From the IMG/VR virus record IMGVR_UViG_2634166457_000011: 27,413 nt of DNA; one strand, 5' to 3'. Position 1 is the stretch's first letter. Each line of letters begins with the position of its first letter. Source of the stretch: a virus (lineage: Duplodnaviria; Heunggongvirae; Uroviricota; Caudoviricetes). The notes below the pieces were generated by a model, which ran no database searches, was not told where the DNA came from, and saw only the letters and a program-made list of their open reading frames with translations. This document shows, one piece after another, positions 16,830 to 18,385 of the stretch. A program made the translations under genes and the position numbers.

Positions 16830-17327
16830 CTACATTTGATGCTTTTTATCTCTTAAAGATTCATAGATCTGTTGACAAGTCATTCCTGCGATGTAGCGTT
16901 CGTCAGCAATTTCAGCATAAAGCTGAGCTTCTGCTGCAATATCTCCGAGCATGTTGGTGAGCATTCCTTCGGCGGTTTTGGTTGTTTTGCCTCTGACGGC
17001 AGCGGCAAGATCTGCGGTATGCTTCGCTGCGTCAAGGCGTATGGCATATTTTTTTGCTTCGGCACGCAACTGGTTAACACTATCAGACAGATAAGCAGCC
17101 CTGGCAGAAATTTCAGCAGATTTCTGTTGCGCATCTTTAACAGCCTCATCACGGGCTATAGTTCGCCCCTGTTCAATTATTCGAGCAGCAAATTGAGCAT
17201 TTACCTCTTGTGATAATGCGGCAGCATCACGTTCCGCCCATTTTTTTTGCCATCCTCGGTCGCTCCAGACATTTCCGACGATACATCCTGACAACACGAG
17301 AAAAATCACCATGAATATCTGATTCAC
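16830..17327 (-). CDS. Rz-like i-spanin
   Basis: N-terminal transmembrane segment [18 protein letters not shown], then a coiled-coil periplasmic domain; GTG start overlaps the endolysin stop (GTGA); an alternative ATG lies at 17312. Confidence 0.75.
16880..17134 (-). CDS. Rz1-like o-spanin embedded in the +1 frame of Rz
   Basis: Signal peptide with lipobox LTSC followed by a proline-rich region (PKQKNMP...[14 protein letters not shown]); fully nested in Rz. Start could be 17149 or 17134. Confidence 0.6.
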
Positions 17328-17857
17328 TGTTCTATCCCCCAGCAGGTTAATGCGCTCTCCTGGTCACGACGAATAACCTGACCGTAACAGTTATTTGAAC
17401 GAATGCGGCAATCGCGTCCGCCATCCTTAATCCACCAGCGAATCGCTTCGCATGCACCTTTACGATCACCAGCATTCAGCCGCTTATAAAACGTCGACGG
17501 GAAACACTTACCGGGACCAATGTTATAGGGACAAAATGACGCGATACCCGCTTTTTGTGGTTCGGTCAGTGGTACTTTAATATTGCGCTCCACCCATGCC
17601 AGCGCCTTATCACGCTCAATGGCGTTGACCTGGTCGCATTTTTCCTTCGACAGTTTCATATTGGGAAAAACGGTTTTTCCATCCACCACTGTGGCACCCC
17701 GACAGATGGTCCATATGCCAGAACCATCGCGGTATGCCATTGTGTGGTTACCTTCTTTTTCGTCCAGAAACTGGTCAAGTATCTGAGGAGCAGATGCGCC
17801 AGCACCAATCAGCGCCAGAACGGCAGCCGACAGGCCGTATCTGATTTTTGTGTTCAT
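17324..17857 (-). CDS. rrrQ: SAR endolysin (T4-lysozyme-like, phage 21 R-type)
   Basis: 177 aa; N-terminal signal-anchor-release segment [19 protein letters not shown]; lysozyme-like E..D..T spacing ([20 protein letters not shown]). Confidence 0.8.
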
Positions 17858-18165
17858 ATATATTTATGATGAGGACGCTCGTGCTTATTGGCAGGATTTT
17901 CAATCTTAAAGGAGTACTGATGCTGCAGATAAGACTCAACTTTTTCTGACAATTTTTCTGCTACTTCCAGGAAGACTTGCCGGACGCTCCTTCTGGCTGC
18001 TGCCTCATAAAACTCCAGCGCAGCTCCTTCAACACGGTCCATGGCGACATCCAGGCCAAAAATTTCACCGTCAAAGCGTTCTTTGTCCTGTAAGGCTACA
18101 GTTACCGTAACTTTATTCTCAAAATTACGGACTCCTTTCACAACCAGTTCATAGTCTTGAGTCAT
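17854..18165 (-). CDS. ydfR: DUF1327 family protein (YdfR-like) between holin and endolysin
   Basis: 103-aa ORF; ATG at 18165; position matches the Qin essQ-ydfR-rrrQ order as I recall it. Confidence 0.55.
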   Translation of the reverse strand: MTQDYELVVKGVRNFENKVTVTVALQDKERFDGEIFGLDVAMDRVEGAALEFYEAAARRSVRQVFLEVAEKLSEKVESYLQHQYSFKIENPANKHERPHHKYI

Positions 18166-18169
18166 TGGA

Positions 18170-18385
18170 TTACTCTCCTCTCGCAGCCTTACGCCTGTCT
18201 TCTTTAATCTTGAAATAAAGATTTGTCAGATACGTCAGCAGGCCAAAAACCAGGCTACCCAGCACACCGATTGCAGCCCACTGTGACGGAGTTACTTTAT
18301 CGAGTAACTGCAATGCCCAGAAACCAGCATTACCCGCCGATGTGCCATAGGCAACACCTGTTGTTAACTTATCCATTGATTTCAT
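18170..18385 (-). CDS. essQ: Pinholin/antiholin (phage 21 S-type) with dual-start motif MKSM
   Basis: [31 protein letters not shown]...[32 protein letters not shown]; two in-frame ATGs at 18385 and 18376; GGTGAGGA upstream. Confidence 0.8.

Follow-up and report, generated by a model that had tools for sequence, protein, structure and literature searches.

Two questions are raised by positions 16830–18385 of the window (the whole stretch of DNA analysed, 27,413 nucleotides): how far the lysis genes found there follow the type of phage 21, and whether they are split by genes of another kind. The sequence-only reading described this interval as a phage-21-type lysis cassette, consisting of a dual-start pinholin, a SAR endolysin and Rz with a nested Rz1, and interrupted by morons. 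The cassette features claimed for the interval are all present, on the minus strand, and can be listed as follows.

16830–18385, minus strand: S–ydfR–R–Rz with Rz1 inside Rz, probable lysis cassette of an E. coli Qin-like lambdoid prophage.
18385–18170, minus strand: S, essQ-type holin of 71 aa with an MKSMDK start (PF04971, 'Bacteriophage P21 holin S').
18376–18170, minus strand: second-start product of S, 68 aa from Met4, the presumed active pinholin.
18165–17854, minus strand: ydfR (DUF1327), 103 aa, a predicted soluble accessory protein (PF07041, E 1.4e-52).
17857–17324, minus strand: R, rrrQ-type endolysin of 177 aa with a T4-lysozyme/GH24 fold (PF00959, E 1e-23).
17839–17774, minus strand: proposed SAR segment of R (codons 7–28), weakly hydrophobic, 50–53% Gly/Ala/Ser/Thr, without Cys.
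17755–17708, minus strand: catalytic motif E35-x8-D44-x5-T50 of R (codons 35–50), a regular-expression match.
17327–16830, minus strand: Rz, rzpQ-type i-spanin of 165 aa, whose GTG start overlaps the R stop (GTGA).
17134–16880, minus strand: Rz1, rzoQ-type o-spanin of 84 aa in the +1 frame, wholly inside Rz, with an LTSC lipobox.

All five reading frames are intact and, as read from the sequence, their junctions are coupled: in order, a 4-nt gap follows S, ydfR and R overlap by ATGA, and R and Rz overlap by GTGA. A minus-strand scan inside the cassette detected no promoter-like or terminator-like site. The GC content is 46.3% in S, 43.6% in ydfR, 50.4% in R and 45.8% in Rz. PHROGs matches identify S as a holin, R as an endolysin and both Rz and Rz1 as Rz-like spanins; in the NCBIfam library R gives the sole match, which lies under the family cut-off, and YdfR, YnfU and Rz are without a match in the PADLOC library.

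The region is very probably the lysis cassette of a Qin-like lambdoid prophage, at the same locus as essQ–ydfR–rrrQ–rzpQ/rzoQ of E. coli K-12, with a mosaic make-up and a mechanism that would be assigned by homology. Over this locus 1856 of 1861 nt are identical to K-12 Qin (b1556–b1553, b4689), with which the window shares the genes, their order and their overlaps, as well as the flanking cspB and ynfU upstream and cspI, ynfQ, ynfR, ynfN and gnsB downstream. The five differences place G37 (K-12 Asp) and I103 (K-12 Leu) in YdfR and C15 (K-12 Phe) and M149 (K-12 Val) in Rz, and leave one silent change in R. Many E. coli chromosomes match the cassette region at 99.8% identity, and at least 80% of the surrounding 3.2 kb block is present in 1602 of 5426 complete E. 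coli genomes (about 30%). The whole cassette also occurs in the deposited phage genomes PhiR42_1 (99.7%), Tritos (99.4%) and HannyBb (96.2%), and phage Tritos carries the entire Q–cspB–S–ydfR–R–Rz–cspI–gnsB block.

The likeness to Qin, which is annotated in K-12 as a cryptic prophage, raises the possibility that the cassette is a decayed, non-functional remnant. Compared with K-12, cspF is truncated in the window, and YdfR has Gly at a position where at least 90% of relatives have Asp. However, the five frames are intact with coupled junctions, and the window continues with genes for the terminase, the portal, the capsid and the tail; such terminase, head and tail genes are not retained in K-12 Qin. 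The match between the window and a full-length prophage extends over about 19 kb at about 99%. Two deposited phage genomes share the cassette at 99.4–99.7%, and both S (dN/dS 0.05) and R (dN/dS 0.09) are under strong purifying selection. In addition, the Q–S–R region of Qin is in use in classical lambda–qin hybrid phages. Decay is very unlikely on these grounds, and the cassette is treated below as intact.

The holin is the part of the cassette that lies closest to phage 21. S matches PF04971 with an E-value of 4.4e-34 (116.7 bits; cutoff 26), and 59 of its 71 residues (83%) are identical to those of S21-71 over the full length without gaps. Two in-frame ATG codons occur at 18385 and 18376, so that ATG AAA TCA ATG occupies 18385–18374, and the dual-start sequence ATGAAATCAATG is the same in phage 21, the curated record of which lists S21-71 as antiholin and S21-68 as holin. 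The 71-aa product from Met1 is presumed to be the antiholin. Membership of the P21 holin S family, the M-K-x-M dual start and two TMDs followed by a charged C-terminus are all found. TMD1 is weakly hydrophobic (KD19 0.70, 53% G/A/S/T; KD19 0.64 in S21) and TMD2 is hydrophobic (KD19 1.72, also 1.72 in S21). Position 40, S44 and G48 of TMD2 are conserved; their significance is presumably that ascribed to them in the S21 literature. The MKSM dual-start holin of pinholin/antiholin type, as first proposed, is thus borne out by the sequence present, by the S21 family and by 83% identity, the use of both starts being predicted. An mRNA hairpin predicted over the S ribosome-binding site was considered as evidence for control of the 71:68 ratio and set aside, its stability not exceeding that of shuffled sequence (z −0.10), and no conservation with phage 21 was found in the 5′ leader of S.

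S21-family pinholins occur together with SAR endolysins, and R has the features of such an enzyme: the catalytic triad, an N-terminal Gly/Ala/Ser-rich segment ahead of the catalytic Glu, and no regulatory Cys. Residues 9–27 have a KD19 of 1.67 and 53% G/A/S/T, compared with 2.11 and 63% in the SAR domain of R21. Residues 9–174, with the N-terminal segment included, align with the solved SAR endolysin R21 (3hde; E 2.1e-16), and in this comparison E35, D44 and T50 are aligned and have the same residue numbers as in R21. Overall identity is 33% to R21 and 83% to N15 gp54. The cysteines of R lie at positions 52, 74, 109, 118, 136, 150, 157 and 172, none of them in residues 1–30; a regulatory Cys in the SAR segment characterizes the disulfide-caged type of P1 Lyz.

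The same N-terminus bears on a second reading, in which R would be a secreted enzyme with a cleaved signal peptide rather than a SAR protein, and the holin would only remove the restraining membrane potential. It has a basic n-region (K4, R6), a hydrophobic core and the small-x-small motif A19-G20-A21|S22, and this A-G-A|S end of the segment could in principle be a signal-peptidase site. However, the analogous A-I-A|S is present at these positions in R21, an enzyme proven not to be cleaved, and the R21 segment is more hydrophobic (KD 2.11 versus 1.67); R aligns with the R21 SAR domain, with the catalytic Glu at position 35 in both, and the Stx-phage literature pairs S21-family pinholins with SAR endolysins. 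Cleavage is accordingly judged unlikely. The preferred reading, an endolysin with an N-terminal SAR-like segment as the earlier description had it, is predicted from hydropathy, composition and the R21 alignment, which agree.

The spanin genes belong to a different family. Rz matches PF10721 (DUF2514; E 2.4e-38) and PHROG 312 'Rz-like spanin' (E 3.8e-57), and is 59% identical to N15 gp55. It has an N-terminal TMD (KD19 2.16) followed by a long helical domain; in a single-sequence AF2 model (pLDDT 73) almost all of the protein is helix (H2–111, H117–141, H151–164). LSGC at Cys15 of Rz was discarded as a lipobox: residues 1–7 include no basic one, and the K-12 protein has Phe in place of this Cys.

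Rz1 occupies 0.39–0.90 of the length of Rz, a position typical of embedded o-spanins. Its ATG is preceded by GAGG 9 nt upstream, R/K residues occur in the first seven positions, the lipobox Cys23 is encoded at 17068–17066, and the mature part contains 9 Pro in 62 residues. Through the Lol pathway, a lipoprotein without Asp at mature position +2 goes to the outer membrane; the mature N-terminus of Rz1 is C-V-P-K, without Asp at +2, as expected of an outer-membrane lipoprotein. Rz1 passes a PROSITE-style lipoprotein rule that only 3 distinct ORFs pass in six frames of the 27.4 kb window; counted as combinations, 5 pass in the real window, three of which are start-codon variants of Rz1, against a mean of 1.5 in shuffled sequence.

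An open frame nested in another gene may arise by chance, and Pfam and NCBIfam have no model matching Rz1, while the PGAP annotation of a near-identical strain omits the ORF. However, the +1 ORF is also open in N15, a Klebsiella phage and phage Eeyore, although their Rz proteins are 55–59% identical to Rz of the window, and in each it encodes a charged N-terminus, a lipobox and a conserved mature sequence, so that the frame with these features is kept in four lineages (56% identity between Rz1 and the ORF embedded in N15 gp55). Few ORFs of the window satisfy the lipoprotein rule passed by Rz1, which also matches PHROG 11621 'Rz-like spanin' (E 1.9e-8); in K-12 the identical ORF carries the name rzoQ, inside rzpQ, and N15 is catalogued among phages with an embedded two-component spanin family. 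A chance frame is extremely unlikely in the light of these data. The nested, proline-rich +1-frame ORF with its LTSC lipobox is confirmed as a predicted o-spanin gene, both by the rule and by the lipobox kept in relatives.

These comparisons show where the phage-21 label holds. The working logic is shared. In sequence, an alignment to phage 21 S, R, Rz and Rz1 supports the label for the holin (83%), but not for the endolysin, which is 33% identical, nor for Rz and Rz1, for which BLASTP against the phage 21 proteins gave E-values of 0.8 and 0.85 and nothing detectable. Rz and Rz1 do not belong to the lambda/21 families PF03245 and PF06085, Pfam assigning Rz to DUF2514. The sequence-only reading had made its label depend on similarity to 21-type lysis proteins, and half of the cassette lacks it. 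Because the holin is near S21 and the endolysin and spanin are near N15, the cassette is, on sequence similarity, a mosaic in which an S21-family holin stands with an endolysin and an embedded spanin (DUF2514) that are both of N15 type.

Phage 21 (OL657228) shares with the window the gene order, the MKSM dual-start class II pinholin, a GH24 SAR-type endolysin with E35/D44/T50, and an o-spanin gene embedded in the +1 frame of the i-spanin gene. It differs in having lambda-like Rz/Rz1 where the window has DUF2514, in lacking a DUF1327 gene between S and R, and in having two tRNA genes at the place of cspB. Genes 53–54–55 of N15 share the endolysin (83%), Rz (59%) and the embedded Rz1 (56%), as well as an Rz GTG start that overlaps the endolysin stop, whereas the 101-aa holin of N15 is unlike S, its Rz N-terminus is longer and no DUF1327 gene is present. 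Stx phages of the H-19B type share an S21-family holin, the 4-nt spacing, a DUF1327 gene and a 177-aa endolysin; the Stx-phage literature assigns their holins to the pinholins of the P21 family. Identity to their DUF1327 protein is only about 46%, R is often followed by an antirepressor gene, the spanin is of lambda type (PF03245/PF06085), and stx and nanS-p stand at the place of cspB.

Whether other genes interrupt this cassette depends first on its flanks, which contain the following features.

20782–20030, minus strand: Q-type antiterminator gene (ydfT/quuQ-like; PF03589 'Antitermination protein Q', E 7.7e-55).
19923–19900, minus strand: bidirectional hairpin, candidate late terminator tR′, 107 nt downstream of the Q gene.
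19515–19123, minus strand: cspB unit (CDS 19354–19139) with a cspA-type thermoregulator 5′ UTR (Rfam RF01766, 158.8 bits; gathering threshold 78).
18857–18838, minus strand: intrinsic-terminator-like hairpin after cspB and before S, an eight-pair stem then a T run.
16613–16228, minus strand: cspI unit (CDS 16467–16255) downstream of Rz, with a cspA-type thermoregulator 5′ UTR (Rfam RF01766, 112.8 bits).

Both cold-shock proteins have a CSD domain (E 9.8e-32 in CspB, E 1.6e-31 in CspI). Expression signals of their own and a differing composition, which mark morons, are found for both genes: each has its own 5′ UTR and a GC content of 35–40% (35% in cspB), and cspB also has a terminator-like hairpin, the one at 18838–18857, which faces the end of ynfU on the opposite strand as well. 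On the same strand, about 750 nt separate cspB from the holin start downstream. The earlier placement of cspB upstream of the holin was correct, but, contrary to what had been proposed, cspB does not interrupt the cassette: it forms a unit apart, equipped with a 5′ UTR and a terminator of its own. The two self-contained cold-shock units, cspB and cspI, lie on either side of the cassette and leave it undivided.

The hairpin at 19900–19923 is reported by the scan on the plus strand; on the minus strand its stem is followed by TTTTTGTGCTTT, and it is presumably tR′, the late terminator to which the sequence-only reading referred. The Q gene, annotated as an antitermination protein in near-identical loci, presumably encodes the activator of late transcription reading into the cassette. 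A consensus scan between Q and the 19923–19900 hairpin found no late promoter, and because of this we infer the route of late transcription. TTGCAT-17-TAAGAT at 19998–19970, picked out by eye as a late promoter, was set aside as weak (7 of 12 positions).

The remaining candidate for an interruption is ydfR, which does lie between holin and endolysin, as the first description stated. Its start lies 4 nt past the S stop, its end shares ATGA with the R start, its GC content, 43.6%, is similar to that of its neighbours, and the scan of the cassette offered no candidate for a promoter or terminator of its own. It is absent from between the holin and endolysin genes, which abut, in phage 21, N15 and the Klebsiella phage ST846-OXA48phi9.1. 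The designation as a moron thus holds in so far as ydfR is optional, but not with respect to expression signals of its own, uncoupled junctions or an unlike composition. Because no own promoter or terminator was detected, ydfR is an optional accessory late gene, co-expressed with the lysis genes, rather than a classical moron.

The DUF1327 family is small and of narrow distribution, and its position behind pinholin genes is strikingly fixed. Counts of DUF1327 context were taken from phage records and contig look-ups; the IMG/VR context was uninformative because all 80 returned loci were 98–100% identical to the window. An AF2 model of YdfR from a shallow alignment (pLDDT 65) has three strands and a long helix; Foldseek of this model against the PDB found nothing significant (best E 0.075, TM at most 0.38), and a sequence search of the PDB found no relative.

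The fixed position suggests a role. YdfR could be a dedicated, working late-phase or lysis factor that binds the RNase E catalytic half and RNA, and thereby protects, stabilizes or times late and lysis transcripts, or else tunes lysis timing. If it were such a factor, its fixed 3–4 nt slot across lambdoid and Stx phages would be explained. ydfR starts 3–4 nt past the stop of an S21-family holin gene in six of the six phage records in which both positions are comparable, and the spacing is the same in all lysis-cassette contigs inspected; it overlaps the R start without a promoter-like or terminator-like site of its own, and the S–DUF1327–R trio accompanies two unrelated spanin families. Purifying selection acts on the first 74 residues (dN/dS about 0.32), and a 2026 study reports that residues 1–72 of YdfR bind the RNase E catalytic half and that RNA co-purifies. 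That study termed the neighbours of ydfR 'genes of unknown function', and a link between the fixed position and RNase E binding seems not to have been drawn before. On the other hand, overexpression of YdfR changed the transcriptome little in the same study. The gene is missing from the three phages named above, and phage records with DUF1327 number 100, compared with 438 with an S21-type holin. Its dN/dS is 3–7 times that of S and R, the C-terminal tails are highly variable among relatives, and the most distant family member lies between tail genes, outside any lysis cassette. A role of YdfR in late expression or lysis timing is therefore a tentative proposal and rather improbable, and an optional accessory late gene is the description retained here.

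The order of events can be proposed by transfer from phage 21 and lambda. Late transcription, modified by Q and resistant to termination, would pass cspB and its terminator and enter S–ydfR–R–Rz/Rz1, and the translation of S, ydfR, R and Rz would be linked via the 4-nt gap and the ATGA and GTGA overlaps. The dual start of S would yield the 68-aa pinholin and the 71-aa form. In the pinholin, the weakly hydrophobic TMD1 would exit the membrane, leaving TMD2 to form small holes; the 71-aa form, with its extra Lys, would delay hole formation. Meanwhile R would be exported by Sec and held inactive in the inner membrane by its Gly/Ala/Ser-rich SAR segment, until the pinholes collapse the membrane potential and R is freed to the periplasm, where it would refold and cut murein. 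Rz, a helical protein of the inner membrane, and Rz1, an outer-membrane lipoprotein, would probably form a periplasm-spanning complex by which the outer membrane is destroyed.

The locus itself is already known, being annotated in E. coli K-12, and the lysis strategy was worked out in phage 21; as a discovery it is thus of small significance, given the K-12 annotation, its presence in about 30% of complete E. coli genomes and the phage 21 strategy. It nevertheless illustrates that an embedded o-spanin gene is still overlooked by routine annotation, as in the N15 record and in the PGAP annotation of a near-identical strain, and it is a clean case of lysis-cassette mosaicism, in which a 21-type holin is combined with an N15-type endolysin and spanin.

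The lysis genes occupy 18385–16830 on the minus strand as five reading frames with tight junctions, and the sequence-only reading had described them accurately:

18385–18170, minus strand: S (holin), 71 codons, beginning ATG AAA TCA ATG; Pfam PF04971 'Bacteriophage P21 holin S' (E 4.4e-34); PHROGs, holin
18165–17854, minus strand: ydfR, 103 codons; Pfam PF07041 DUF1327 (E 1.4e-52); PHROGs, unknown-function families only
17857–17324, minus strand: R (endolysin), 177 codons; Pfam PF00959 phage lysozyme (E 1e-23); PHROGs, endolysin
17327–16830, minus strand: Rz (i-spanin), 165 codons, GTG start; Pfam PF10721 DUF2514 (E 2.4e-38); PHROGs, Rz-like spanin (E 3.8e-57)
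17134–16880, minus strand: Rz1 (o-spanin), 84 codons in the +1 frame, wholly within Rz; no Pfam match; PHROGs, Rz-like spanin (E 1.9e-8)

The stop codon of S is separated from the ydfR start by 4 nt, an ATGA overlap joins ydfR to R, and a GTGA overlap joins R to Rz. A GAGG motif lies 9 nt 5′ of the nested Rz1 ATG. Within the cassette, a consensus scan of the minus strand found no promoter-like or terminator-like site.

The nested frame encodes a predicted lipoprotein under a PROSITE-style rule (Lys or Arg among residues 1–7, an uncharged stretch and a lipobox); the lipobox here is LTSC, ending at Cys23. The six frames of the whole window contain just three distinct ORFs that satisfy this rule, and the passing start/ORF combinations number five, compared with a mean of 1.5 in shuffled windows. 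The +1 frame is also open for about 84 codons in phage N15, Klebsiella phage ST846-OXA48phi9.1 and phage Eeyore, where it has a basic N-terminus, a hydrophobic core and the lipoboxes LVSC, LASC and LASC, respectively; the mature sequence is conserved (PQ[IV]...CSPTC) even though the Rz proteins are just 55–59% identical. Mature Rz1 contains 9 Pro in 62 residues and begins C-V-P-K; as Asp is absent at +2, the Lol rule predicts that it should reach the outer membrane. The frame spans 0.39–0.90 of the length of Rz, the range usual for embedded o-spanins. Rz itself has an N-terminal transmembrane segment (hydropathy, KD, 2.16), and AF2, run on the single sequence, models it as helical almost throughout, interrupted by two breaks, as expected of an i-spanin. 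At Rz codon 15 (17285–17283), Phe in K-12 is replaced by Cys, creating LSGC within the transmembrane segment; as a lipoprotein signal this fails the rule, the N-terminus having no basic residue, and it is probably meaningless. The o-spanin gene is annotated in K-12 MG1655 (rzoQ, putative lipoprotein), yet PGAP leaves it out in a near-identical E. coli strain (NZ_CP148326.1, 12631–13128), and the N15 RefSeq record (1710–2255) omits it too. Embedded genes remain a persistent gap in annotation.

The curated phage 21 genome OL657228, in which S21-71 antiholin, S21-68 pinholin, SAR endolysin, i-spanin and embedded o-spanin are annotated, served as the reference for comparison protein by protein. 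S is 83% identical to S21 across all 71 residues, including the MKSM start, and the two transmembrane segments are alike in hydropathy (TMD1, KD 0.70 here and 0.64 in S21; TMD2, 1.72 in both). In contrast, R is only 33% identical to R21 (BLASTP), whose SAR domain is experimentally established. Residues 9–174 of R nevertheless align with R21 (3hde, E 2.1e-16) with the N-terminal segment included, as is also the case for RrrD (phmmer, PDB), and an E-x8-D-x5-T motif begins at residue 35 in both R and R21. The N-terminal segment of R is less hydrophobic than that of R21 (KD 1.67 and 2.11, respectively), is 53% Gly/Ala/Ser/Thr and lacks Cys; these features match the R21 mode of regulation, not that of P1.

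BLASTP found no similarity between Rz or Rz1 and their phage 21 counterparts (E 0.8 and 0.85). The closer relatives are in N15, where gp54 is 83% identical to R, gp55 is 59% identical to Rz, and the unannotated +1 ORF is 56% identical to Rz1; N15 represents its own embedded two-component spanin family (Kongari et al., 2018). Because the holin resembles S21, R, Rz and Rz1 are closer to N15, and the spanins are unlike those of phage 21, the cassette is, on these alignments, mosaic, combining a 21-family pinholin with N15-type endolysin and spanin. The earlier description of the cassette as phage-21-type therefore stands for function, architecture and holin, but not for the sequence families of Rz and Rz1, which are unrelated, or of R, which is N15-like.

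The gene ydfR is located between S and R as had been proposed, and is absent from phage 21, N15 and the Klebsiella phage, in which the holin and endolysin genes abut. Among phage records, its family occurs in only 100, compared with 438 for the S21-family holin. The view that it is a classical moron is disfavored by the lack of promoter or terminator signals in the consensus scan, its coupled junctions, and a GC content (43.6%) similar to that of neighboring genes. Its start lies 3–4 nt past the holin stop in six of six phage records listing both coordinates, and in all inspected lysis-cassette contigs with two divergent DUF1327 subtypes, in which the spanin is of the unrelated lambda type. 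Several database proteins (P0029, P0052, P0076, P0082, P0095, P0098) bear both PF04971 and PF07041; these are probably gene-call or frameshift fusions over the 4-nt gap and are a trap for domain-architecture surveys.

DUF1327 is a very small family: a set of 1.84 billion representatives yields 79 of its clusters at 50% identity. Its members share a conserved N-terminal part of 74 residues, followed by variable tails. The modeled structure of YdfR yielded no usable fold match, and ydfR evolves faster than its neighbors (dN/dS 0.32, compared with 0.05 in S and 0.09 in R). Gly37 (about 18057–18055) replaces an Asp present in at least 90% of aligned relatives, K-12 included; at least 12 IMG/VR contigs share Gly37, which is thus a common variant rather than a sequencing error. 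The most divergent homologue found (2501–2785 of a Logan SRR16693353 contig) has a lambda tail I-like gene on one side and a gpJ-like tail tip gene on the other, rather than lying in a lysis cassette, which indicates that the domain is mobile between phage modules. In a 2026 paper, residues 1–72 of YdfR are reported to bind the catalytic half of RNase E, and RNA to co-purify; YdfR overexpression had little effect, the neighbors of ydfR are described as genes of unknown function, and the gene cluster is noted as reported to be cold-induced. We take ydfR to be an accessory late gene; a role in late-mRNA stability or lysis timing is unsupported and seems rather unlikely.

The surroundings of the cassette include the following features:

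20782–20030: Q-family antiterminator gene (PF03589)
19923–19900: bidirectional hairpin, 107 nt beyond the Q gene; on the minus strand, TTTTTGTGCTTT comes next
19354–19139, minus strand: cspB, low GC, with full cspA-type thermoregulator 5′ UTR (Rfam RF01766, 158.8 bits)
18857–18838: terminator hairpin 3′ of cspB, rated good
18605–18775, plus strand: ynfU, encoding a small zinc-ribbon protein (PF23499); antisense, in the interval from the cspB terminator to the start of the holin gene
16467–16255, minus strand: cspI, low GC, with full cspA-type thermoregulator 5′ UTR (Rfam RF01766, 112.8 bits)

The cspB (19123–19515) and cspI (16228–16613) units bracket the cassette on the same strand. The proposal that cspB is cargo interrupting the cassette is not borne out, as both genes flank it with their own 5′ UTRs, and cspB with a terminator; each is a self-contained cold-shock unit. 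The reported cold induction of the ydfR cluster could be explained simply if transcripts from the cspB promoter ran past its terminator. The late terminator mentioned in the sequence-only reading could reasonably be the hairpin at 19923–19900. Because the consensus scan found no late promoter, the transcription route is drawn from lambdoid precedent: Q-modified polymerase would proceed through cspB and its terminator into S. A sigma-70-like site (10/12) lies just upstream of ynfU at 18517–18546, and ynfU and cspB converge on one bidirectional hairpin; late transcription must therefore run against ynfU.

Elsewhere in the window, about 259 bp is missing relative to K-12 Qin at the cspF/ynfS end (breakpoint about 19855, region 19675–19893), and cspF in the near-identical strain is annotated as a frameshifted, incomplete pseudogene. 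The prophage early region carries a hokD-type toxin ORF with sok antisense RNA (22660–22985, minus strand; Rfam RF01794, 94.7 bits). The stretch 23318–25145, which includes an ORF at 23449–24357 (plus strand), has no match in the otherwise near-identical NZ_CP148326.1 prophage; it encodes a LysR-family regulator (HTH_1 and LysR_substrate) and a 172-aa ORF without a Pfam match, in place of which that prophage holds an AAA ATPase.

The locus is already known and common. A 3.2-kb query around the cassette matches many E. coli chromosomes at 99.8%, with the labels essD/essQ, ydfR, rrrQ and rzpQ and the flanks cspB, ynfU and cspI, and at least 80% of this block is present in 1602 of 5426 complete genomes. 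The classical lambda-qin hybrids that gave Qin its name use this Q-S-R region. Five of 1861 positions distinguish the cassette from its counterpart in the K-12 MG1655 Qin cryptic prophage: two alter YdfR (here G37 and I103), two alter Rz (here C15 and M149), and one, in R, is silent. A full-length prophage of strain Z1323HEC0475 is about 99% identical to the window over about 19 kb. The same cassette is found in the deposited phage genomes PhiR42_1 (99.7%), Tritos (99.4%) and HannyBb (96.2%), with the whole Q-cspB-S-ydfR-R-Rz-cspI-gnsB arrangement in Tritos. Unlike K-12 Qin, the window runs on into terminase, portal, capsid and tail genes; with these genes retained and the same cassette present in phage genomes, the cassette is very probably functional.
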